Below are positions 52,494 through 64,000 of a DNA stretch of 64,000 nucleotides, piece after piece. Every line of letters begins with the position of its first letter. Positions within the stretch are counted from its first letter, which is position 1. The DNA lies in the IMG/VR virus record IMGVR_UViG_3300010340_001122, one strand, 5' to 3'. This stretch comes from a virus (lineage: Duplodnaviria > Caudoviricetes). Below the pieces are notes generated by a model that was not told the DNA's origin, did no database searches, and worked only from the letters and a program-made list of their open reading frames with translations. The position numbers were made by a program, and so were the translations under genes.

Positions 52494-52925
52494 TTACAAT
52501 GGTAATCCCTTAACAGGATTAGATTGCATAACAAACATTAGAAATAGTGGAAGAGGACCATCAGAATTCATAATGATATTATTTTGGTACTCATATCTAC
52601 CAGAGTAGAGATTTTTACCATTAAACAACATAATAATATCATTATCTGAGTTTCCATAACTTCGATAAATCATGTTATTTTTGATAGTATATAATACTTT
52701 ACTCCAAATTTCATATTGACCATCATAGATGTATTTCCCATCAAATGTTAGGATAACGCTTCCAATATTAGGATATTCTCCTTTATAAAGGCGTTTACCA
52801 TCCCAAGTATATTTAATATCACTTCTTCGAGCATATCTTCCTTCATAGATATGACGACCATCAAAAGTGAAAACTTGATCATTTTGATTTCTATATTGAC
52901 CTCGGAAAATATTAATATTTGACAT
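52494..52925 (-). CDS. protein of about 19-aa (F/W)DG..IY.G.Y repeats
   Basis: 5-6 internal repeats. Confidence 0.75.
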   Translation of the reverse strand: MSNINIFRGQYRNQNDQVFTFDGRHIYEGRYARRSDIKYTWDGKRLYKGEYPNIGSVILTFDGKYIYDGQYEIWSKVLYTIKNNMIYRSYGNSDNDIIMLFNGKNLYSGRYEYQNNIIMNSDGPLPLFLMFVMQSNPVKGLPL

Positions 52926-52993
52926 TTTTCAGTGTTTGTATTACAAATATACAAAAAAATATAAACAAAAAAAATCTTTTAAGTATAATTTAC

Positions 52994-53353
52994 ATGTTTA
53001 CTTCTACGAAAATTATAGTTAAAGACTCACCAGTTCATGGTAAGGGAGTTTTCGCAACCGATACGATATTATCGGGAGAAGTTATTGAGGAATGTCATTT
53101 TATTCATTTAAATGAACCAGATTTTTCAAAATTAGATAGTTCACTAAAAGAATACACTTTTTCTTGGCCGTTATTCCATAATAATTCACATGCTGTTGTT
53201 TTAGGATTTGGTAGTATTTATAATCATCGAGATAATAATAATGCTACTTGGAAAACAAACTTAGAAAAAAATTGTTATACTTTTATCGCTATTAAAGATA
53301 TAAATCCAGGTGAGGAGATATTTACAAATTATATGAGATCCACATCCTTTTAA
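52994..53353 (+). CDS. SET-domain protein
   Basis: HGKGVFA, YNH...NA, DI.PGEEI..NY. Confidence 0.85.
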   Translation: MFTSTKIIVKDSPVHGKGVFATDTILSGEVIEECHFIHLNEPDFSKLDSSLKEYTFSWPLFHNNSHAVVLGFGSIYNHRDNNNATWKTNLEKNCYTFIAIKDINPGEEIFTNYMRSTSF

Positions 53354-53588: not shown

Positions 53589-53664
53589 TAAACTTTTAAA
53601 ACCTTGATTGATTCTATGTATATAAATATCAATGAAGAAATTCATAGAAAAAACAATAAACAAA

Positions 53665-53940
53665 ATGAATAAAGCAGATTTAGTTACCGAAATTTCTAGC
53701 AAAACCGGTTTAACAAAAACTAAAGTTGGTGAAGTGGTTGATACCATTGTTGAATCTATTCAAGGTGCTCTTGCAAACGGTGATAAAGTAACTCTAGTTG
53801 GTTTCGGAACTTTTGACACCATCACACGTAAGGCTCGTAAAGGTCGTAATCCAAAAACTGGTGCTGAACTTAACATCCCTTCTAAAAGAGCAGCTCGTTT
53901 TAAGGCAGGCGCAGGTCTTTCAAATGTTGTTAATTCTTAA
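53665..53940 (+). CDS. hup: HU family DNA-binding protein
   Basis: MNKADLV, VTLVGFGTF, RKGRNPKTG, FKAG. Confidence 0.92.
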   Translation: MNKADLVTEISSKTGLTKTKVGEVVDTIVESIQGALANGDKVTLVGFGTFDTITRKARKGRNPKTGAELNIPSKRAARFKAGAGLSNVVNS

Positions 53941-54945: not shown

Positions 54946-55779
54946 ATGAAGAATTTATTAATATTTCTAATATCCGTTTTTCTAACTTCTTGTTCTACTT
55001 ATAGTTCATATCAAGTTAATCCTAATTCATATACCGCAGTTGTTGTTGAAGATCCAATAACATATAGTATATATGATAATAATTTAGTATATTGGAACTC
55101 ACCTTATTACTCACCATACAACACGGTTCTAATTTTTAGTAACTACCAATATCAATATTATAATTGGAGTTGGAACACTTACTATTGGTCATCTAATTGG
55201 TATGCTTGGAATAACTGGAACCCTTATCAAAATTGGAATGGTTGGAACTATTCTAATAACTGGAATGGTTGGAACTATTCTAATAACTGGAACGGTTGGA
55301 ACTATTCTAATAACTGGAACAACTGGGGATGTCAAAATAATAACATCTATATAAATAATAATTATTTCGGTGGTAAAAAATCATATAATTATGGATTGGG
55401 TGGTAAATATACAAACACGGAAAAATTTAAATTAAAGCCTTACACACAAACTAGTTCGGAAAAGTCACTCAGACCAGAAAATGTACATATTAATAAGGTA
55501 GAAGAAACTCTAAAATTTAGACCGATTCAACAATCTAGACCAGAAACTAGACCTGTTCAACAATATAACTCACAATCTAGACCGATTCAATCTAGACCAG
55601 AAACTAGACCGATTCAATCTAGACCAGAAACTAGACCGGTTCAACAATCTAGACCAGAAACTAGACCGGTTCAACAATCTAGACCAGAAACTAGACCTGT
55701 TCAACAATCTAGACCAGAAACTAGACCTGTTCAACAATACAAAACACAATCTAGACCGATTCAACAAAATAGAAAATAA
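54946..55779 (+). CDS. lipoprotein with N/W/Y-rich and SRPETRPVQQ repeats
   Basis: LTSC lipobox; 27-nt and 30-nt tandem repeats. Confidence 0.75.
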   Translation: MKNLLIFLISVFLTSCSTYSSYQVNPNSYTAVVVEDPITYSIYDNNLVYWNSPYYSPYNTVLIFSNYQYQYYNWSWNTYYWSSNWYAWNNWNPYQNWNGWNYSNNWNGWNYSNNWNGWNYSNNWNNWGCQNNNIYINNNYFGGKKSYNYGLGGKYTNTEKFKLKPYTQTSSEKSLRPENVHINKVEETLKFRPIQQSRPETRPVQQYNSQSRPIQSRPETRPIQSRPETRPVQQSRPETRPVQQSRPETRPVQQSRPETRPVQQYKTQSRPIQQNRK

Positions 55780-56007: not shown

Positions 56008-56038
56008 TTTGACATTATAGAAAACTTTTGTATATTTG
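56008..56038 (+). promoter_or_regulatory. Bacteroidota sigma-A-type promoter of tRNA operon 1
   Basis: TTTG (56008)-N19-TATATTTG (56031); second TAATATATA motif at 56071. Confidence 0.75.
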
Positions 56039-56086
56039 TAATGTAAAAGAAACAAGAGAGAAACAATTTTTAATATATAAGAAATC

Positions 56087-56194
56087 ATGACAACAGTTCG
56101 TACACATAAATCTTTTAGTAAATCGTTTAAATGGCATTTTAAAAGCCATCGATTCGGTACTAAGAACGAACTGCCAAAAAATGAGATAGTGTAA
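56087..56194 (+). CDS. attenuator leader peptide 1 (MTTVRTHKSFSKSFKWHFKSHRFGTKNELPKNEIV)
   Basis: 35-aa ORF between promoter and terminator; H/K/F/W cluster. Confidence 0.75.
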   Translation: MTTVRTHKSFSKSFKWHFKSHRFGTKNELPKNEIV

Positions 56195-56221
56195 TCTCGT
56201 AATTTTTGATAGTGAAATTCC

Positions 56222-56259
56222 AAAAACCCGAATACAAAAGATTCGGGTTTTTTGTTTTT
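56222..56259 (+). terminator. attenuator terminator 1
   Basis: AAAAACCCGAAT-loop-ATTCGGGTTTTTT directly upstream of first tRNA. Confidence 0.85.
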
Positions 56260-56263
56260 ATAT

Positions 56264-56356
56264 GGTGTCAGTAGCCGGTAATTGGTAACCGACCAGATTG
56301 TGGCTCTGGAATGACTTCAAAAAAGTCTTTTGCGGGTTCGAGTCCCGTCTGACACC
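56264..56356 (+). tRNA. tRNA-His(GTG), long variable arm
   Basis: G-1:C73, CCAGA-TTGTGGC-TCTGG, GACTT/AAGTC extra arm. Confidence 0.85.
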
Positions 56357-56361
56357 CAAAT

Positions 56362-56434
56362 GGAGCCTAAGCTAACTTGGTAGAAGCACTGGTCTGAAAA
56401 ACCAGAGGACCCGGATCGTAACCGGGAGGTTCCA
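56362..56434 (+). tRNA. tRNA-Phe(GAA)
   Basis: CTGGT-CTGAAAA-ACCAG; T-loop ATCGTAA. Confidence 0.85.
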
Positions 56435-56441
56435 CAAAAAT

Positions 56442-56515
56442 GGTGATTGTAGCTCAATCGGTAGAGCGCAGGTTTGTGGCACCTGAGGCAGCGGGATCGA
56501 AACCCGTCATTCACC
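56442..56515 (+). tRNA. tRNA-His(GTG)
   Basis: G-1:C73, CAGGT-TTGTGGC-ACCTG. Confidence 0.9.
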
Positions 56516-56524
56516 CAAAAAAAT

Positions 56525-56614
56525 GTACTCGCTCATAGGCGTGACCAGGCGGCTCCAACCCGCTCTCCGAAAGGGGTCTAACGATTGGTGAGGGTTCGAA
56601 TCCCTACGGGTATG
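56525..56614 (+). tRNA. tRNA-Trp(CCA), atypical (reduced D arm, long variable region)
   Basis: GGCGG-CTCCAAC-CCGCT; GGGTTCGAATCCC; G73. Confidence 0.65.
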
Positions 56615-56619
56615 CAAAA

Positions 56620-56692
56620 GGTTTCATAGCTCAGTTGGTAGAGCGTCGCCCTGAAGAGGCGAGCGTCGGCGGTTCAAGTCCGTCTGAAACCA
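56620..56692 (+). tRNA. tRNA-Phe(GAA)
   Basis: Canonical cloverleaf, TCGCC-CTGAAGA-GGCGA. Confidence 0.92.
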
Positions 56693-56698
56693 CAAACT

Positions 56699-56769
56699 AC
56701 GGGTGACAGGCTTGGTGTCGGTGGGATCTCCAAAATCTTCACGAGCTACTTCGATTGTAGCCACCCGTG
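56699..56769 (+). tRNA. tRNA-Trp(CCA), atypical D arm
   Basis: ACGGGTG/CACCCGT acceptor, GGGAT-CTCCAAA-ATCTT. Confidence 0.7.
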
Positions 56770-56776
56770 CTAAGTA

Positions 56777-56884
56777 CATAAAAATGGAATAAACAATGAT
56801 AATAGAATAGATAATTTAGAATTTTTATGTCCAAATTGTCATTCACAAACTGAAAATTACGCAGGTAAAAATAAATTAAATTAA
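56777..56884 (+). pseudogene. HNH endonuclease C-terminal remnant
   Basis: HKNGINNDNRIDNLEFLCPNCHSQT; no start codon. Confidence 0.8.
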
Positions 56885-56971
56885 AAAATGAGAACTATTA
56901 CAATAAAACGAAAATGTAAACGATAGGCAAATGTTCCACATATACGGACCATTTGCCAATAAAAAACAAAT

Positions 56972-57046
56972 GATTCCGTAGCAAAATGTGGCTTTGCTCC
57001 TGGCTTTTAACCAGGCTAAAAGTGAGTTCGACTCTCACCGGGATCA
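56972..57046 (+). tRNA. tRNA-Lys(TTT)
   Basis: CCTGG-CTTTTAA-CCAGG. Confidence 0.85.
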
Positions 57047-57091
57047 CAAAAATGTGTTCGTCGAGATTTAAATTCTCCAGACACATAATAT

Positions 57092-57175
57092 CCGTCCGTG
57101 AGTGAGCGACCGAAACTATCAGACTTTTAATCTGACTCCTAAAGGACAACACTGGTTTGAATCCAGTCGGACGGA
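57092..57175 (+). tRNA. tRNA-Lys(TTT), long variable arm
   Basis: TCAGA-CTTTTAA-TCTGA; TCC-TAAA-GGA arm. Confidence 0.8.
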
Positions 57176-57181
57176 CAAAAT

Positions 57182-57267
57182 AACTCAGTTCCCGTAGCTG
57201 GCCGAACGGCTCCGACTCTTAATCGGATTGCGAAAGCACAACGAGGGTTCAAATCCCTCCTGAGTTA
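57182..57267 (+). tRNA. tRNA-Lys(CTT), long variable arm
   Basis: TCCGA-CTCTTAA-TCGGA; TGC-GAAA-GCA arm. Confidence 0.82.
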
Positions 57268-57328
57268 CAAAAATCCGAACTCACGTTTAACTTCTTAAAG
57301 GAAGATACTTATTTTTTATATATAATAT

Positions 57329-58222
57329 ATGAAAATAAATGATATAAACTGGGAAGAGGTTCAACTATTCTACAATAATGATAAAAACTGGAGTGATGTA
57401 TGTAAATATTTTAATATCAGTCAAAATTTAATTATAAGTGCAAAAAAACTAGGACTATTTATTAGTAGAAGTAAATCAGAATCGATTTCTATTTCACTTA
57501 GAAAAACTCCGAGGAAGCATTCAGAAGAAACAAAGAAAAAAATAAGTGAGATAAGAAAAAAGTATTTACAAGAGAATCCAGATAAAGTTCCATATAAATT
57601 GAATCATAGTAGTAAAGAATCATATCCTGAGAAATACTTTACTGAAGTATTTGGAAATGAAGGAATAGAAGTTGTTAAATCTTTTAATATCGGAATTTAT
57701 GAACTAGATTTTTGCATATTAGATAAAAAAATTGATATAGAAATCGATGGTAGTCAACATTATTATGATGAAAAAATAGTTGAGAGTGATAAACGTAGAA
57801 ATAAATTTCTTGAAGATAATGGATGGGATATCATAAGAATAAACTGGTCTGATTATCAAAAACTTGGTTTTGAATATAAAAAAGAATACATTTCAAATTT
57901 AAAAAGTTATATAAATGATTTAATAGACACTAAACCATTTTTTGAGGTTCCTATTAAAGAAAAAAAAATTAAAGAAAAAAAACAAAGAGTTGAGAATAAA
58001 AATAAAAAAATAAAAAAAGAATATTTATGTAAATATTGTGAAAGTAAATGTACTTGGTCTAAAGATAGGTGTGAACCTTGCTACAGAAAACAAAGTAGAA
58101 AAGTAGAAAGACCATCTTTAGAGCAATTGAAAATAGACATAGAAAATTTAGGATATTTAGGAACTGGTAGAAAATATGGAGTAAGTGATAATAGTATAAG
58201 AAAATGGATAAAATCCATTTAA
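57329..58222 (+). CDS. DUF559/Vsr-like putative homing endonuclease
   Basis: HSEETKKKIS (NUMOD3-like), DF...IEIDGSQH, D..R...L...GW...RI.W, C-terminal YGVSDNSIRKW HTH. Confidence 0.82.
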   Translation: MKINDINWEEVQLFYNNDKNWSDVCKYFNISQNLIISAKKLGLFISRSKSESISISLRKTPRKHSEETKKKISEIRKKYLQENPDKVPYKLNHSSKESYPEKYFTEVFGNEGIEVVKSFNIGIYELDFCILDKKIDIEIDGSQHYYDEKIVESDKRRNKFLEDNGWDIIRINWSDYQKLGFEYKKEYISNLKSYINDLIDTKPFFEVPIKEKKIKEKKQRVENKNKKIKKEYLCKYCESKCTWSKDRCEPCYRKQSRKVERPSLEQLKIDIENLGYLGTGRKYGVSDNSIRKWIKSI

Positions 58223-58231
58223 AATAAATTT

Positions 58232-58363
58232 GGGGAGGTAGCTCAGTGGTAGAGTATAGCTACACTCTTTTGAAACTTTACCTCTGAAAAGAGTGTTGAT
58301 CGAAAGAGTTACTTCGTATATTTTGAACATATAAGGTCGTTGGTTCGAATCCAACCCTCCCCA
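58232..58363 (+). ncRNA. tRNA-framed RNA with about 60-nt insertion between D arm and anticodon arm
   Basis: GGGGAGG/CCTCCCC, canonical D and T arms, TATAT-TTTGAAC-ATATA arm. Confidence 0.7.
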
Positions 58364-58385
58364 CAAACTTTAAAAATAAAAAATT

Positions 58386-58682
58386 ATGGACTCATTTTCA
58401 ATTACATTGAATAGATTGAGAGATATGATTAACTCTAGATTACGACCTGGTATTGATAAAGTATGGGTACAAGGAGTAAGTGCATCAAATGCTAGATTAG
58501 TCTTCACTATTTTTTTTAGCGATCCTACCCAAACTCCACTCAATTGTGGTTATGTGATGAGATTCACAAATGTTAAAAACTTTAGACATTATCGATCTGA
58601 TGGGGATCCAGATAATGAGTTTAGATTACTCGAAGTATATATGGACCAGTTTATGAAAATATTAGGCGATATAATTGAATAA
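58386..58682 (+). CDS. hypothetical protein
   Basis: 98 aa ORF. Confidence 0.65.
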   Translation: MDSFSITLNRLRDMINSRLRPGIDKVWVQGVSASNARLVFTIFFSDPTQTPLNCGYVMRFTNVKNFRHYRSDGDPDNEFRLLEVYMDQFMKILGDIIE

Positions 58683-58714
58683 AAAATCAACTAAAAGTAT
58701 TTTTTGTTATATAT

Positions 58715-59278
58715 TTGCATATGTGGTTTAGAAAAAATAAAATAAAAGAAGAAAAATCATCTGTGGTAAAAGATACAGATGATTTTTTAGAAAAGTATAA
58801 ACAGAGTAGAAAAGAGATTGTACATATGCAATCTCAATATCAAGATTATATTTTAAGATCGTTAGAGTTAGATTTTATCGATTATAAAGAAAATCTTGAA
58901 AAAAATTGGCCCAATTTTGAATCGAACACATGTGAATTTTGGAATTTATCAAAATCATCAATCACATCAAGAAGTTCAGAACTCAAATTGATTAAATCAA
59001 ATAATGGTGATAGTATAAAAATTGAAGTTGAATTTAACTTTGATGAATCAAAACTAACTTTTAATATTACTAAACTAGTAAGTATAATGGGGTATGAATA
59101 TACAAATTTAAAAAAAGAAATATTTGAAAATATTATCTTTAAATATTATATGTGTTACCTATACAAAAAAACTAACCTAGTAAGAGATGAGACCAAGGTT
59201 AATTTTCAAAGGATGCTAGATATTATTGGTAAATCAACTAAAAGAGATGCAATGATTAATAAAATTTTAAATGGATAA
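58715..59278 (+). CDS. hypothetical protein with C-terminal tag
   Basis: KRDAMINKIL; probable start at MWFRK after TATATTTG. Confidence 0.7.
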   Translation: MHMWFRKNKIKEEKSSVVKDTDDFLEKYKQSRKEIVHMQSQYQDYILRSLELDFIDYKENLEKNWPNFESNTCEFWNLSKSSITSRSSELKLIKSNNGDSIKIEVEFNFDESKLTFNITKLVSIMGYEYTNLKKEIFENIIFKYYMCYLYKKTNLVRDETKVNFQRMLDIIGKSTKRDAMINKILNG

Positions 59279-59587
59279 AAAAATATTAGTAAAGAAAACT
59301 GGTGATATTTTAACCACTTCAAATAATGAACTTCAAATTAAGATTATGAATTTTGAATTTGATTTAGAATATAACATCAAAGATAAGATTGAAAATAAGA
59401 TCACGTTCACACATCCAGGCGATTCTAAAACAAATCGAGAAGGTAAATATTATCTGATGCGGATTTTAAGACTCATTTTCAGTCAGTTAAAAAATAGTTG
59501 AAAATAAATTTGGTTTGTATTGTTTTTGTATGTACATTTGCATTACAATAATTAAGTAATCAATCACTTTCGATGCAGCCAGCCGGA

Positions 59588-59704
59588 ATTGCCGAAGGTG
59601 GGGATTACTTGCACAACAGCCCATCAGAAGCACAAAAGTTCAATGTAGTGCAATTGCTTATTAGTGGAACGTCAGCCCCCACTTTTGGCAATACCTTGTT
59701 AGCG
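59588..59704 (-). repeat. attC-like palindrome (one end truncated)
   Basis: ATTGCCGAAGGTGGGG / CCCCACTTTTGGCAAT; GTTAGCG end. Confidence 0.65.
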
Positions 59705-59743
59705 GTATGTGCTTATTGTCAAACGTAAATTAAAATTAATAAA

Positions 59744-60028
59744 ATGAAACAAGCAATTTGGAAATTTGAAACACCATTTGAAGATAAGTTTTCACTTCAA
59801 ATGCCAAAAGGTTCTGAAATACTTTCAGTTCAGCAAGACCAAAAAACTATGATACCTTGTATATGGGCTTTGGTTTATCCAGAAAATGAAAAAGAGGAAA
59901 GGTTTTTTGAACTTTTCGGAACTGGACATCCTATTCACAATGATATGGGAATTGAAAGAAAGTATGTCGGAACTTATCAATATCAACGTGGTGAATTTGT
60001 CGGACACATTTTTGAACGGGTGTCGTAG
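59744..60028 (+). CDS. cassette-borne conserved phage-type hypothetical protein
   Basis: IWKF...MPKG.EILSVQ...IWALV...GTGH...YVGT. Confidence 0.8.
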   Translation: MKQAIWKFETPFEDKFSLQMPKGSEILSVQQDQKTMIPCIWALVYPENEKEERFFELFGTGHPIHNDMGIERKYVGTYQYQRGEFVGHIFERVS

Positions 60029-60034
60029 CATTAC

Positions 60035-60166
60035 CGCTAACGTTAAAGCATTGGCGAATAAGGGGCATTTGAAAGACAAATGTTCAGCCTTTGCAGAATG
60101 TTTCATAGTAGCACAAAAGTTGAATTAACATCGTCAAGCCCCTTTTTTGCCAATGCAATGTTAGTG
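60035..60166 (-). repeat. attC-like palindrome
   Basis: CGCTAAC..GCATTGGC..AAGGGGC / GCCCCTT..GCCAATGC..GTTAGTG. Confidence 0.8.
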
Positions 60167-60250
60167 GATAGGTGAAAATGGTAATATTTATCATGAATCT
60201 GAGGTAATTGTTGGACTGGATGAAATTAGAGAATATAAAATTGAAAATAA

Positions 60251-60282
60251 TTTGGAAATTTAAAAACAAAGAAGTATATTTG
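60251..60282 (+). promoter_or_regulatory. Bacteroidota sigma-A-type promoter of tRNA operon 2
   Basis: TTTG-N20-TATATTTG, followed directly by TAATATATA. Confidence 0.75.
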
Positions 60283-60297
60283 TAATATATAATAAAT

Positions 60298-60366
60298 ATG
60301 AAAGTCATGAACACTACATCATCATCGTCGTCAAGTCGTAGTTCGAAGATGGTAATGTATTGCTAA
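60298..60366 (+). CDS. attenuator leader peptide 2 (MKVMNTTSSSSSSRSSKMVMYC)
   Basis: 22 aa with 8 Ser and 1 Arg, between promoter and terminator. Confidence 0.8.
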   Translation: MKVMNTTSSSSSSRSSKMVMYC

Positions 60367-60381
60367 AAATAAAAATACACG

Positions 60382-60421
60382 AAATCCTCGAATTTGAAAA
60401 AGTTCGAGGATTTTTTATTTT
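60382..60421 (+). terminator. attenuator terminator 2
   Basis: AAATCCTCGAATTT-GAAA-AAGTTCGAGGATTTTTT directly upstream of tRNA. Confidence 0.85.
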
Positions 60422-60423
60422 AT

Positions 60424-60495
60424 AACCGTATAGTTTAATGGATAGAATTACCGGTTTCGACCCGGTAGGTGAGGGTTCGAGTCCTTCTATGGTTA
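60424..60495 (+). tRNA. tRNA-Arg(TCG)
   Basis: ACCGG-TTTCGAC-CCGGT; A20 identity element. Confidence 0.85.
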
Positions 60496-60552
60496 CTAAC
60501 CTCTGTAAATAGGAGTTCGGTTTTTTAATATATAAACTAAAAATCGAATTTT

Positions 60553-61401
60553 ATGACAGATGTAAATAAAAGAAGGTCTGAGAAAATGAAACAAAATTTC
60601 AAAGATGGTAAAATTAAAGGATGGGTAATAAATAATAGTAAAGATAGAAGAAGCTATCCAGAAAGTTTTTTCATAAAAGTTTTTAAAAATAATAATTTGT
60701 ATGAAAAATACAATATAGAGGAAAAATTTTCTTATGGTAAATACTTTATAGATTTTCTTTTTGTTGAATTAAAACTAGTTTTAGAGATCGATGGTGAACA
60801 ACACTTTGCAACAGAAGAAGCTATTAAACATGATATGGAAAGAGATAACTTTTTCTTAAAAGAGGGATTTAAAATATACAGAGTAAGATGGAAAGATGTT
60901 TGTAATAATGCTAAAAAAGAAATTGATGAACTTTTAAATTTTCTAAATAATATAGAGTCTAATTTAATTAGAAAATATATCTTAGATGATTCAGTTTATC
61001 AGAAAAAGAAAAAGAAATACATCCAAAGAAAAAAAAAGAAAAAATGCTCAGATTGTGATAAATTTATTTTAATGAAAAGTAATAAATGTAGAAGTTGTTA
61101 TCTAAATAGTTTAGAAAAAAAATTGACCAAACGAATAGGTAAAAATAAATGTGTGATGTGTGATGAAACTATACATGGTGAAAAATTTTGTAAAAAATGT
61201 TATGATATAAATCAGAGAAAAATTGAAAGACCGGATATTAATGAGTTAATTGAAAAAGTAAAAATTCTTGGATATTCTAAGGTTGGTAAAGAATATGGTG
61301 TTAGTGACAATACGATAAGAAAATGGATAAAAAATCGGCAGATGTGGGTTCGAATCCCACCGCGTGAGATAGCTACACGTAGTATCATAATAGGAGAATG
61401 A
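60553..61401 (+). CDS. DUF559/Vsr-like putative homing endonuclease (paralog of 57329..58222)
   Basis: SYPE..F, IDF...LEIDGEQH, YGVSDNTIRKW; C-terminus runs into a tRNA remnant. Confidence 0.82.
   Translation: MTDVNKRRSEKMKQNFKDGKIKGWVINNSKDRRSYPESFFIKVFKNNNLYEKYNIEEKFSYGKYFIDFLFVELKLVLEIDGEQHFATEEAIKHDMERDNFFLKEGFKIYRVRWKDVCNNAKKEIDELLNFLNNIESNLIRKYILDDSVYQKKKKKYIQRKKKKKCSDCDKFILMKSNKCRSCYLNSLEKKLTKRIGKNKCVMCDETIHGEKFCKKCYDINQRKIERPDINELIEKVKILGYSKVGKEYGVSDNTIRKWIKNRQMWVRIPPREIATRSIIIGE
61335..61366 (+). pseudogene. 3' half tRNA remnant
   Basis: TCGGC-AGAT-GTGGG-TTCGAAT-CCCAC without a 5' half. Confidence 0.55.
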
Positions 61402-61413
61402 CACCGAAAATAT

Positions 61414-61500
61414 GGAGAGTTGGTAGAGTCTGGCTTATTGCACCGGTCTTGAAAACCGGAGGTCCTTCGGGATCCCAGGGTTCGAATCCCTGACTCTCCT
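61414..61500 (+). tRNA. tRNA-Ser(TGA)
   Basis: CCGGT-CTTGAAA-ACCGG, long variable arm. Confidence 0.92.
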
Positions 61501-61505
61501 CAAAT

Positions 61506-61586
61506 GGAAGTACCCAGTGGACTGAGGTTAGGCGTCTTGAAAACGTTGAAGTGTCGCGAGGCATGTGCGAGTTCACTGCTCTCCGC
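61506..61586 (+). tRNA. tRNA-Ser(TGA)-like, degenerate T arm (possible pseudogene)
   Basis: GGCGT-CTTGAAA-ACGTT, variable arm; no TTCGA loop. Confidence 0.5.
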
Positions 61587-61591
61587 AAAAT

Positions 61592-61824
61592 ATTCAGATA
61601 GTTTAAATCGGAAAAACAATCCTAAAACGAAGGGATTCTCTTTTGAGGGATTTTAACTTGCTACTGGAGGCTGTCAAAGATATGGTTGTGTATTCAACTG
61701 ACATAAGACCAAAGGGTGTGAGGTTCTGACCACACGGTTGCGGATGCACTGAGATACACTCAGGAAGCGAGTTCTCCAAGGTCAATTTATGAAATCTATG
61801 TGGGTTCGATCCCCATTCTGAATG
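61592..61824 (+). ncRNA. 233-nt tRNA-framed RNA with large structured insertion
   Basis: ATTCAGA/TCTGAAT acceptor, D arm, T arm GTGGG-TTCGATC-CCCAT, several internal stems. Confidence 0.7.
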
Positions 61825-61829
61825 CAAAT

Positions 61830-61902
61830 GGTTCCATCGTCCAATTGGATAGGACGTATCTTTGCGAAAGATATAATGTGAGTTCGAATCTCACTGGGAC
61901 TA
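61830..61902 (+). tRNA. tRNA-Arg(GCG)
   Basis: TATCT-TTGCGAA-AGATA; A20. Confidence 0.87.
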
Positions 61903-61909
61903 CAATCTT

Positions 61910-61999
61910 AGAGGAGTCATCCGAAATTGGTATCGGTCCGGCCTGGAAAGTCGGTCATCGGGATAACCTGATGTGTGGGTTCGAGTCCCATTTCCTCTG
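61910..61999 (+). tRNA. tRNA-Ser(GGA)
   Basis: CCGGC-CTGGAAA-GTCGG, long variable arm, G73. Confidence 0.87.
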
Positions 62000-62311
62000 C
62001 TAAATATCTATATTATAGAGTTTATTATACGCATTTTCTAATTTATCAATTTCCTTCTCTATTTTTTCCAATAATTCATTTTTAGTCATAGTCATTTTAA
62101 CTATTTCTGTATGATACCAATCACCTGATGGTCTTGAAGAATATTTAAAAATTAAATTATCATAAATAAAATAATCATCATAAATATAATATTCAGAAGC
62201 TTCATCAAAAAAATCATCACCTACAGATACACTTCCTGATTCTATCGCTCTTTTAAAAATTTTACCTATTTCATCATTTAATTTACTTTCAAATTTTGAT
62301 AAATATTTCAT
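62000..62311 (-). CDS. hypothetical protein with MKYLSKFE tag
   Basis: Start reassigned to the tag ATG; TATATA upstream. Confidence 0.65.
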   Translation of the reverse strand: MKYLSKFESKLNDEIGKIFKRAIESGSVSVGDDFFDEASEYYIYDDYFIYDNLIFKYSSRPSGDWYHTEIVKMTMTKNELLEKIEKEIDKLENAYNKLYNIDI

Positions 62312-62371
62312 GTTTTTAATAATTTTATTTAATATATATATAAATTTAGTTGTTAAAAAATATAAAAGACT

Positions 62372-62788
62372 ATGAACCATAAGCAAGTAAACCACAAAAT
62401 CCAGAAGTTGTCCAAGGACATGAAAAAACAAGGACATGTTTCTTCTAAAAAGCCAAGCAATACTAAATTATCAAGTGAAGATCACTTAGCTGAGAAGCCA
62501 AAAAAAGGTGGAACTCATAGAGAGCCAAATTCTAAAAAGGTAGATGCTGAGAAGTTTTTAGCTAAAGATCACAAACTTACACATATAAAAGAATTTAATT
62601 CTTTTAATGAAAGTCAAAGTCTTCTTACGGATGAGGAGAAAAAATGGTTAGAATCTATCATTTCATATGCCGATAATTATCAGGGGTTTGAACCTAATGA
62701 TATCAAAATGAGAGATTCTATTTTTCACAAACTGGGAATAGGAACTAAAAATAATAATGATAACTGGGAAGCCGGTTCAGGATATTAA
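62372..62788 (+). CDS. basic/acidic hypothetical protein with internal HIKEFNSFNE tag
   Basis: 138 aa; TAATATATA upstream. Confidence 0.7.
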   Translation: MNHKQVNHKIQKLSKDMKKQGHVSSKKPSNTKLSSEDHLAEKPKKGGTHREPNSKKVDAEKFLAKDHKLTHIKEFNSFNESQSLLTDEEKKWLESIISYADNYQGFEPNDIKMRDSIFHKLGIGTKNNNDNWEAGSGY

Positions 62789-62806
62789 AAAATTATAAAT
62801 AATAAT

Positions 62807-62932
62807 ATGAAACATATTAAAAAATATAATGAATCAGTAGAGTGGAATGATAAATACAAATCTGATTTATGGAAATCATTAAAATCATCTATTAAAAATC
62901 TTTTAGAGTCTGGTGAAATAAAAAGGAAATAG
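62807..62932 (+). CDS. 41-aa protein with MKHIKKYNE tag
   Basis: Manual translation. Confidence 0.5.
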   Translation: MKHIKKYNESVEWNDKYKSDLWKSLKSSIKNLLESGEIKRK

Positions 62933-63002
62933 AAATATATTTAAATGCTTTATTCAATTTTAATGGCTTAGAAGACGAAACCCTTTAAAAAATAAATTAA
63001 TT

Positions 63003-63033
63003 TTTGGAAGTTTTAAAACTTTTTGTATATTTG
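63003..63033 (+). promoter_or_regulatory. Bacteroidota sigma-A-type promoter of attenuated unit 3
   Basis: TTTG-N19-TATATTTG. Confidence 0.75.
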
Positions 63034-63067
63034 TAATATAAATAAATAATAAATAAAGACACATAAA

Positions 63068-63103
63068 ATGAAAACAATGTACTACATATTCAGAAATGAT
63101 TGA
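63068..63103 (+). CDS. attenuator leader peptide 3 (MKTMYYIFRND)
   Basis: 11-aa ORF between promoter and tandem terminators. Confidence 0.6.
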   Translation: MKTMYYIFRND

Positions 63104-63132
63104 TCAAGGTCAGTAGTGCTATAACTATATCT

Positions 63133-63194
63133 ACCCAGTCAATCAAAAATTGACTGGGTTTTTTTTACCCAGTTATTCCGAACTGGGTTTTTTT
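63133..63194 (+). terminator. tandem attenuator terminators
   Basis: ACCCAGTCAAT/ATTGACTGGGT + T-run, then ACCCAGTT/AACTGGGT + T-run. Confidence 0.85.
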
Positions 63195-63219: not shown

Positions 63220-63564
63220 ATGAAAATAAAACAACAGATACGAGATAAATTCAGAAAAGATGTCTTTGAAAGAGACAACTATAAGTGTGTAATATGTGGT
63301 AAATCAGATCTTAAATTAGATGCTCATCACATAACTAATCGAAAAAAGATGCCGAATGGTGGATATGTTAAGGAGAATGGTATCACACTTTGTGATTGTT
63401 ATGATGGGTGTCATTTTAAAGCTGAACAATTCAATTGTGGTTATACTGAGTGGTATGTTATTCAGACTAAAGGACAATACTTGGAAGAATTTACAGCTGA
63501 AAATCTATACAAAAAAATTAACTCAAGCTATGAACTAGCTTATAAAAAATCAGAAAGACTATGA
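63220..63564 (+). CDS. HNH endonuclease
   Basis: RDNYKCVICG, LDAHHI, NGITLC...CH. Confidence 0.85.
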   Translation: MKIKQQIRDKFRKDVFERDNYKCVICGKSDLKLDAHHITNRKKMPNGGYVKENGITLCDCYDGCHFKAEQFNCGYTEWYVIQTKGQYLEEFTAENLYKKINSSYELAYKKSERL

Positions 63565-63779
63565 ACACAGATGTCAATGAGGATTTTGAAAACATATATG
63601 AAGAAAAAGTCCAAGATATAAAGAAAAGAAAACGAGCTCTTCGTTTCATTCAAGATCCAAATATGGTTAAGAAAATCAAAAAAGATCTTGAACGTGAGAA
63701 GCGTGGAGTAAAACGCTCTGAAAAGCACCAGCTTAAAGAGTGGATAAAAAAAGAATTAAATAAAGATCCTTTATTATAG
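63561..63779 (+). CDS. small basic coiled-coil protein
   Basis: 72 aa; ATGA overlap. Confidence 0.6.
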   Translation: MNTDVNEDFENIYEEKVQDIKKRKRALRFIQDPNMVKKIKKDLEREKRGVKRSEKHQLKEWIKKELNKDPLL

Positions 63780-63830
63780 TAATTGTATAGTTTTTCATTT
63801 TAATATATAAAATAAAAAAAATTAATAAAA

Positions 63831-64000
63831 ATGAAATGGACAAAAGAAGAATGTATGAGAGTTTCTTTATATTTTAAAAAAAGAAGTGATTTTGAAAGAA
63901 ATTATAGAGGTGCATATATGGCTGCTTTAAAAAATAATTGGATAGATGAAGTATGTTCACATATGGACACAGTGAAGGTATGGAGTGAAGACGAGTGTTA
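63831..64000 (+). CDS. partial ORF with KWT.E.C repeats (typical of phage homing endonucleases)
   Basis: MKWTKEEC...AY.AA.KNNW.DEVCSHM; runs off the window. Confidence 0.6.
   Translation, partial: MKWTKEECMRVSLYFKKRSDFERNYRGAYMAALKNNWIDEVCSHMDTVKVWSEDEC

Follow-up and report, generated by a model that had tools for sequence, protein, structure and literature searches.

Codon-matched leader ORFs and terminators ahead of phage tRNA blocks point to translation-coupled attenuation of tRNA supply

In the enterobacterial attenuators thrL, ilvL (ilvGMEDA), trpL, hisL, pheL and leuL, a promoter is followed by a short ORF with control codons and by an antiterminator and an intrinsic terminator that exclude each other. 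A translation-supply gene is under such control in the pheM-pheST attenuator of E. coli, where stalling at cognate codons governs a host synthetase. One leader can sense several amino acids, as in thrL and ilvL (mechanism: PMC1183508; PMC3082878). In T-box riboswitches, too, tRNA status governs an intrinsic terminator, but one uncharged tRNA is bound directly and no ribosome is needed. It has long been asked why phages carry tRNAs, but hardly how these are regulated. The Pnk/Rnl1 repair system of T4 counters PrrC. According to the available part of the study, T5 tRNAs counter PARIS AriB, and demand-driven, codon-specific induction is not described there (PMC12409363). In the trn operon and TrcR regulon of Anabaena, translational stress induces a tRNA array together with the RNA ligase RtcB, in this case through a repressor acting at initiation on one block and without codon specificity (PMC10272220).

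The units described here lie in a 64,000-nt stretch of DNA from a giant phage of the Caudoviricetes (IMG/VR record IMGVR_UViG_3300010340_001122), hereafter the window. They share the anatomy of the enterobacterial attenuators and, with thrL and ilvL, leaders addressing several amino acids. They differ in being phage-borne, in having tRNA genes as output, such that the sensed molecule would be the product itself, in splitting the whole tRNA set among up to seven parallel units, and in that a 1:2 protector hairpin is predicted in a minority of them. Unlike leaders of the trpL/hisL/thrL type, those in the window stand before tRNAs and an RNA ligase operon instead of biosynthesis or synthetase genes; units of related phages do precede synthetases and are direct analogues of pheM-pheST, although pheST concerns one host synthetase whereas the phage device serves tRNA blocks, an RNA ligase operon and several synthetase-like genes alike. 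The combination of tRNA array and RNA ligase under a theme of translation stress recalls Anabaena, and phage tRNAs and RNA ligases are possible counter-measures as in T5 and T4, the ligases of the present phage being of the PF09414 type, unlike the T4 system. Rfam leader families remained below their thresholds (His_leader 31.9 of 49 bits, Thr_leader 21.3 of 55) and no Rfam match to a T-box (stem I specifier loop, T-box antiterminator motif) was obtained. In line with the novelty proposed in the first-pass annotation, searches of openly accessible literature yielded no description of leader-peptide attenuation of tRNA genes, and the string 'attenuat' occurs nowhere in the text of a huge-phage survey (PMC7162821).

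Three leader-terminator units in the window

Promoter, short leader ORF, intrinsic terminator and genes follow one another at all three sites (Table 1), so that the threefold layout seen at first pass was recovered with every element located. The promoter-like sites read TTTG-N19/20-TATATTTG, with -7 boxes at 56031, 60275 and 63026; TTTG at -33 with TATATTTG at -7 is the housekeeping promoter type of Bacteroidota. The region contains 16 terminator-like sites as against 4.2 +/- 2.2 in shuffles. An AT-rich motif, 24 of whose 31 copies in the window stand upstream of an ORF, is probably a phage (late) promoter.

Table 1. Features of the three units and adjacent genes (window positions unless L001 is given)
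Feature	Coordinates	Strand	Remarks
Promoter 1, Bacteroidota housekeeping type (-33 TTTG, -7 TATATTTG)	56008..56038	+	motif match to consensus
AT-rich motif upstream of leader 1, probable phage (late) promoter	56069..56079	+	motif copies; putative role
Leader ORF 1, 35 codons	56087..56194	+	control run codons 7-19 (56105-56143), rich in His, Lys, Phe, Trp
Antiterminator segment (region 2), unit 1	56152..56157	+	pairs with 5' arm of terminator 1; 5/7 pairs compensatory in 17 homologues
Intrinsic terminator 1 with U tract	56222..56258	+	hairpin 56222-56252
tRNA block 1: His(GTG) x2, Phe(GAA) x2, Trp(CCA) x2 (one atypical), Lys(TTT) x2, Lys(CTT)	56265..57268	+	
DUF559/HNH-like endonuclease gene behind block 1	57329..58222	+	own AT-rich promoter-like motif at 57314
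tRNA-like element, enlarged anticodon and variable regions	58232..58364	+	conserved at block 1 end in relatives
Promoter 2, Bacteroidota housekeeping type	60251..60282	+	motif match
Leader ORF 2, 22 codons	60298..60366	+	Ser/Arg run codons 8-16 (60319-60345)
Antiterminator segment, unit 2	60340..60350	+	10/11 identical to terminator 3' arm
Intrinsic terminator 2 with U tract	60381..60420	+	hairpin 60381-60414
tRNA-Arg(TCG), first gene of block 2	60424..60496	+	
Inserted DUF559 endonuclease gene (60553-61401) with internal promoter-like motif at 60524	60524..61401	+	absent at same place in L085
Remainder of block 2: Ser(TGA), degenerate Ser(TGA)-like copy, large tRNA-like element (61590-61828), Arg(GCG), Ser(GGA)	61414..62000	+	
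Promoter 3, Bacteroidota housekeeping type	63003..63033	+	motif match
Leader ORF 3, 11 codons, without codon run	63068..63103	+	stop codon inside antiterminator segment (63096-63103)
Tandem terminators 3a (63133-63159) and 3b (63167-63188)	63133..63194	+	freed 3' arm of 3a can pair with 5' arm of 3b
Operon start behind leader 3: HNH-like gene, 72-aa ORF, GIY-YIG gene	63220..64000	+	
Two PF09414 RNA ligases, same operon, beyond window end	L001 8064-8720, 8880-9569		

Over codons 5-22 leader 1 matches its block at 11 of 18 positions (background 0.16, p 2e-5) and leader 2 at 9 of 18 (background 0.12, p 7e-5). Units 1 and 2 and those of relatives have clusters of control codons that correspond to the function they regulate, and the earlier proposal that tRNA identities follow the leader codons holds for these two leaders; leader 3 lacks such a run and no tRNA stands behind it. 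In block 1, the Trp(CCA) gene at 56699 was detected only at a relaxed threshold, while the second Trp-like gene at 56524, recognised only by folding, is 99% conserved in L085. Leader 2, with a single Arg codon, precedes Arg(TCG), Ser(TGA), Arg(GCG) and Ser(GGA); a Ser(GCT) tRNA for its two AGT codons is not recognisable in the window, and relatives carry one. Promoters downstream of the terminators, which by the reckoning of the first-pass annotation would speak against gating if the tRNAs were made from them, are indicated in part: the probable phage promoter motif at 60524, past terminator 2, may bypass attenuator 2 and drive most of block 2 in the window genome.

Folded with a ribosome footprint, unit 1 was on only when codons 7-19 occupied the A site, a contrast between control codons (on) and stop (off) that is partly inherent in the footprint model. 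A protector hairpin upstream of the antiterminator, at first ascribed to every leader, is predicted for leader 1; for leaders 2 and 3 the prediction is antitermination on the growing transcript with no ribosome present. Just 16 of 71 units are predicted to be off without a ribosome, and no pair is compensatory in the consensus hairpin that spans the control codons. The antiterminators of the window taken singly are short and borderline against shuffles (p 0.07, 0.05 and 0.2), and their significance derives from the family.

Codon match and covariation in relatives

Relatives were gathered with the second RNA ligase as query, the 57-aa upstream ORF having retrieved none. In six huge-phage genomes the true assignment of leaders to blocks outranks every other permutation (1/5040 in three genomes, 1/720 in two, 1/120 in one), with the reservation that the leaders of G003 were chosen by eye among several ORFs and that two of these show a poor match within the fixed codon window. 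The match is frame-specific (56% as against 17% and 13% in the other frames), and 138 of 145 block identities are found in the block's own leader, compared with 51% in foreign leaders, although these units are related by descent and their counts therefore overstate independence. Arginine codons follow the isoacceptor of the block: 12 of 13 are CGN before CGN readers and six of seven AGR before AGR readers, against a background of 84% AGR. Where tRNA blocks have been reshuffled (G001, G003), or where a Glu/Tyr/Gly/Ile/Ala block has been merged (G002, G005), the leaders are rewritten to correspond. Biosynthetic family and known nuclease target set were both considered as the principle behind the grouping of tRNAs and rejected, as groupings differ between phages. 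In a blind scan with a codon-only motif, all ten short ATG ORFs with flanking sequence were followed by a terminator and His/Phe/Trp/Lys tRNAs, and tRNAs occurred at none of the 29 other matches.

The leader ORFs are conserved, their start being kept in homologues, and pS exceeds pN (0.36 vs 0.16), whereas the peptide tails and even the reading frames vary freely past the control codons. Among 17 homologues of unit 1 the 2:3 antiterminator helix is 92% paired with compensatory changes at five of seven pairs (0/500 shuffles). The 3:4 terminator is 100% paired, with six of seven pairs compensatory. The antiterminator, whose pairing excludes the terminator, comes directly behind the control codons. 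Own antiterminator duplexes surpass foreign ones (p 5e-5), and the distance from leader stop to terminator stem is 18-37 nt in 71 units. The core of the first-pass reading, that codon-matched, ribosome-coupled attenuators control phage tRNA operons, was thus upheld in every comparative test run.

Taken together, the relatives' units account for tRNAs of about 19 amino acids. Synthetase-like genes, too, stand behind matching leaders, namely those for Asp, Asn, Leu, Val, His and His/Phe. In LR745206.1, 55 of 61 Rfam tRNA matches lie inside seven units.

A proposed feedback switch and its trigger

The units very probably represent translation-coupled transcription attenuation of the trp/his type, reused as feedback on tRNA supply. 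Each leader ahead of a tRNA block is written in codons that the tRNAs of that block read, so the block is probably made only under slow decoding of those codons. Host RNA polymerase would initiate at the promoter, with a ribosome trailing on the leader. A ribosome that passes the control codons would cover region 2, upon which the terminator folds and transcription ends before the tRNAs; one stalled at a matched codon would leave region 2 to pair with the 5' arm of the terminator and the block would be transcribed. The unit would hence respond to a lack of usable (charged, intact) tRNA at particular codons by switching on the phage's own supply, and the new tRNAs would relieve the stall, so that the product itself would close a negative feedback loop. 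In relatives, phage synthetases would be gated by this device as well. Leader 3, without a codon run, probably reports general translation failure and would so induce the RNA ligase operon. Because the antiterminators are weaker than the terminators, the switch would rely on folding kinetics and on the coupling of transcription to translation. Anatomy, codon-anticodon match, conservation, covariation and predicted switch geometry were read directly from the genomes; from them we infer leader translation, stalling, read-through, feedback and a physiological trigger. Phages would accordingly monitor how fast individual codons are decoded and produce tRNA blocks when needed. Classical attenuation would in this way reach tRNA genes, in the form of product feedback, and the units would be small natural sensors of tRNA shortage.

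It is improbable that the hairpins are merely constitutive terminators or RNA-processing signals behind leaders that are untranslated or fix a constant read-through. The terminator is indeed the most stable fold at equilibrium, single antiterminators are short and internal promoter-like motifs are present, but such a reading cannot explain a frame-specific match that tracks reshuffled blocks, compensatory changes in the 2:3 helix or recurrence in unrelated phages. Action in trans, by peptide products or by T-box-like direct binding of tRNA to the leader, is more improbable still: trans roles of some attenuator peptides are reported (PMC7968998), yet here peptide tails and frames are free to vary, Rfam detects no T-box and each leader carries many different codons read in frame.

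Within the attenuation model the trigger is a separate matter. The units may serve mainly as inducible counter-defence, detecting host tRNA cleavage by anticodon nucleases and supplying replacements and repair ligases; we regard this as possible, at somewhat less than an even chance. Extra tRNA is most useful when the tRNA molecule itself is lost, and Arg matching extends to the isoacceptor. The RNA ligases behind leader 3, for which no relative of solved structure was found by sequence, fit a role in tRNA damage, their action on tRNA being putative, and AAA_33 kinase-like genes occur in four of five relatives (RtcB in one). Several single Met(CAT) tRNAs, probably initiators, stand outside the units and ungated, which tells against counter-defence; initiator tRNA is a target of some VapC toxins. 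AriB toxicity is rescued by the T5 tRNAs Lys, Thr and Asn (PMC12409363), and one block of G001 joins the same three. Against such a trigger stand the coverage of about 19 amino acids instead of known nuclease targets, block groupings that vary between phages and match no target set, and synthetases under the same control. The first-pass annotation is well supported as to codon-matched attenuators, and its anticodon-nuclease step is a possible extension. A bolder version has about the same chance as that trigger: in phages of several unrelated families, codon-specific sensor arrays would detect the particular host tRNAs destroyed by defence nucleases and induce precisely the corresponding replacement tRNAs, synthetases and repair ligases, a target-specific counter-defence with leaders that would also list the tRNAs under attack.

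Breadth of coverage together with gated synthetases makes the system look like a general supply controller. A homeostat without special link to defence, answering decoding bottlenecks that arise when phage proteins are made in bulk, codon usage is mismatched, host RNA is degraded or amino acids are limiting, has close to an even chance of being the correct description. It is favoured by the near-complete coverage in LR745206.1, by synthetase genes gated as in E. coli pheST and by the selective charging of isoacceptors, which renders such leaders supply-sensitive (PMC1183508). On the other hand, supply alone leaves the RNA ligase operon unexplained, and true amino-acid starvation is not cured by extra tRNA. 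Codon demand, host RNA decay and anticodon nucleases can be reduced to one direct measurement, namely which condition opens which terminator.

Distribution of the units

The device is not universal: the tRNA array of Streptomyces phage FlowerPower lacks an immediately preceding leader or terminator, and in LR756511.1 and G004 most tRNAs are dispersed and belong to no such unit. The His/Phe/Trp/Lys leader motif had no match in bacterial genomes; the Ser/Arg motif was saturated there by chance matches, with a Ser/Arg block at none of the 80 matches listed. Six further matching units were found in unrelated cultured phages, Cellulophaga phi10:1 and phi4:1 and Tenacibaculum Gundel_1, with the phi10:1 unit located in KC821618.1 at 2700-2860 of locus L308, so that the idea is testable, and practically so, in these hosts' phages.

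Leader codons and the tRNAs behind them

The window consists of phage DNA rich in AT and carries genes for tail fibres and homing endonucleases. Its nearest public genomes are those of the uncultured phages LR745206.1 and LR756502.1 (635 and 642 kb). Its promoters match TTTG / TAnnTTTG, the promoter consensus of Bacteroidota, and we therefore infer that the host is a member of this group. The layout of promoter, short leader ORF and terminator put forward in the first-pass annotation was found at all three sites (units 1-3). His, Phe, Trp and Lys tRNA genes lie behind unit 1 and Arg and Ser tRNA genes behind unit 2, and the claimed agreement of tRNA identities with leader codons holds for both: in codons 5-22, 11 of 18 match the unit's own tRNA block in leader 1 (p 2e-5) and 9 of 18 in leader 2 (p 7e-5). 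It does not extend to unit 3, behind which no tRNA gene is present.

The covariation of leader codons with downstream tRNAs that the annotation had proposed to compare with shuffled controls is borne out in six genomes, where the actual pairing of leaders and blocks beats all permutations. The match is confined to the reading frame (56% against 17% and 13% in the other frames), and 138 of 145 block identities are present in their own leader, compared with 51% in foreign leaders. A blind scan with a codon-only motif, ignoring tRNAs, gave 40 matches, 11 of them in short ATG ORFs; all ten such ORFs with enough flanking sequence are followed by a terminator and His/Phe/Trp/Lys tRNAs, and none of the remaining 29 matches has tRNAs behind it. 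Arg codons in the leaders follow the Arg isoacceptor of their own block, which by descent amounts to just one or two events.

Features of the window and of loci in related phages
Feature	Position	Remark
SET-domain-like ORF (judged by eye)	52919-53353	upstream of tRNA region
HU-like DNA-binding protein (PF00216)	53632-53940	upstream of tRNA region
Lipoprotein-like ORF	54946-55779	two internal peptide repeat tracts; directly upstream of unit 1
Leader ORF 1; terminator	56087-56194; 56222	unit 1
His, Trp, Lys tRNAs	56265-56357, 56524-56616, 57092-57268	long variable regions, atypical for class
HNH endonuclease gene remnant	56777-56881	within block 1
AT-rich motif	57314	within block 1
tRNA-like element	58232-58364	large insert
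Leader ORF 2; terminator	60298-60366; 60381	unit 2
AT-rich motif	60524	within block 2
Conserved tRNA-like element	61333-61410; L085 5791-5866	also L093, L103
Ser and Arg tRNAs	61414-62000	block 2
tRNA-like element	61590-61828	large insert
Leader ORF 3; terminator	63068-63103; 63133	unit 3
Shortened LeuRS-, ValRS-, HisRS-like proteins and PheS-related SrmL gene	L011 832-2100, L136 10696-12225, L103 11219-11860, L137 12862-13962	each with matching leader

Alternative RNA structures and possible bypass

In a set of 71 units, 18-37 nt separate the stop codon from the terminator stem that follows, and an antiterminator duplex is found at p 0.05 or better in 32. Comparison of 17 unit 1 homologues shows full pairing of the terminator helix, in which six of seven pairs are compensatory; for the alternative helix, formed by the leader and the terminator 5' arm, pairing reaches 92% and five of seven pairs are compensatory (0 of 500 shuffles). 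Furthermore, a unit's own terminator arm pairs with the leader better than foreign arms do (p 5e-5). Folding of the growing transcript with a ribosome footprint gave, for unit 1, an antiterminator value of 0.13 in the absence of a ribosome. The value was 0.66-0.84 when the A site lay within codons 7-19, which form the His/Lys/Phe/Trp run, and 0.09 when it had reached the stop codon. Unit 2 was predicted to be on through codon 12, and unit 3 through codon 8 and also when untranslated. From these results the hairpin protecting the antiterminator appears clear in some units only; its sequestration upstream, as originally claimed, fits unit 1 and is not predicted for units 2 and 3.

The window has 11 further strong terminators, of which that of unit 3 alone has both a promoter and a short ORF at the right distance. 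A second terminator follows; once the 3' arm of the first is free, it can pair with the 5' arm of the second (-11.1 against -10.7 kcal/mol), and antitermination could thus carry through both.

Of the 31 copies of an AT-rich motif in the window, 24 stand ahead of phage genes; the motif mostly lies 15-16 nt upstream of the start codon and is probably a phage late promoter. Copies lie upstream of leaders 1 and 2 and also within both blocks, ahead of inserted endonuclease genes. tRNA promoters downstream of the terminators had been named as evidence against attenuation; the copies inside the blocks are putative candidates, and the one in block 2 could allow transcription of the Ser and Arg tRNAs without control by attenuator 2. 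This copy lies in a hairpin preceding the endonuclease gene, an arrangement also known from T4 homing endonuclease genes.

Unit sets of other phages and putatively gated synthetase genes

LR745206.1 and LR756502.1 carry seven units each (His/Phe/Trp/Lys; Ser/Arg; Glu/Tyr; Ile/Gly/Ala; Asn/Leu/Thr/Val/Ile/Met/Arg; Pro/Asp; Gln). In LR745206.1, 55 of 61 Rfam tRNA matches fall inside them; among the six others are three Met(CAT), one Arg and one Cys. Its Gln unit follows the Pro/Asp unit with no promoter motif in between, and Gln codons are also present in the Pro/Asp leader, as expected for nested control. The tRNAs of a 482-kb phage, G001, are grouped differently, as Leu/Ser, Asp/Cys/Glu/Ala, Asn/Gln/Tyr, Pro/Phe/Val, Trp/His, Ile/Arg and Thr/Lys/Gly/Met, and all its leaders are rewritten accordingly. 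In G002 and G005 the Glu/Tyr and Gly/Ala(/Ile) blocks are fused behind a single fused leader. Matching units also occur in two distant phages with sigma-70-like promoters (G003, LR756511.1). Amber-reading tRNAs (CTA anticodon) lie outside attenuated blocks in related phages (L130, L131, L134, L139, L143, L018).

Cultured phages contain such units as well. In the single unit of Cellulophaga phage phi10:1, codons 5-14 are exclusively Trp, Ser, Tyr, Cys or Phe, precisely the identities of its block. Three units are present in Cellulophaga phage phi4:1, with 10/14, 14/14 and 11/14 codons matched, and two in Tenacibaculum phage Gundel_1; in all of these the stop-to-stem distance is 23-32 nt and the antiterminator lies near codons 15-19.

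Phage synthetase genes sit behind the same layout with matching leader codons: an Asp leader precedes a non-discriminating AspRS in three genomes, an Asn leader AsnRS, Leu and Val leaders shortened LeuRS- and ValRS-like genes, a His leader a HisRS-like gene, and an alternating His/Phe leader HisRS-like and PheS-related genes.

Mode of action, trigger and unusual tRNA-like elements

The units very probably represent classical ribosome-coupled attenuation serving as feedback on tRNA supply. The leader would be translated, the ribosome would stall at control codons cognate to the block, and transcription would read through the terminator. This is the mode of working of thrL/ilvL and pheM-pheST; the units differ from the thrL/ilvL-type family in target class and fall short on Rfam score. 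In line with the first-pass annotation, no description of tRNA genes controlled by leader-peptide attenuation was found in the literature covered, which takes in few subscription papers, and attenuation is not mentioned in the huge-phage survey PMC7162821. Anabaena trn, the closest regulated tRNA array found, is under repressor control (PMC10272220) instead of leader attenuation.

Cleavage of host tRNAs by nucleases, answered by phage-made replacements, fits as a possible trigger: added tRNA helps where the tRNA itself is lost, and T5 provides a precedent (PMC12409363). The two PF09414 RNA ligases behind unit 3 also fit; contigs extending the window place them in an operon with an HNH-like gene, a 72-aa ORF and a GIY-YIG gene. 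A general controller of supply fits at least as well, given the wide tRNA coverage and the gating of synthetases. The two readings are compatible with each other.

A His codon is present in the leader 3 homologues of five phages whose ligase operon includes a HisRS-like gene, and both are absent in five others, the window among them; L099 has the codon and lacks the gene. This link is only suggestive because the sequences are related.

The conserved element near the ligase operon, which overlaps the end of an endonuclease ORF in the window, starts with a T arm, followed by a closed acceptor-like stem and a D-like arm, and both its ends lie at the anticodon stem; it looks like a circularly permuted tRNA or one opened at the anticodon. 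The two tRNA-like elements with large inserts have normal acceptor, D and T arms, match no Rfam family except tRNA, and are kept in relatives (L085, L170, L093, L179; L095, L097). Copies of the long Lys tRNA are also found in LR745206.1 and LR756502.1.
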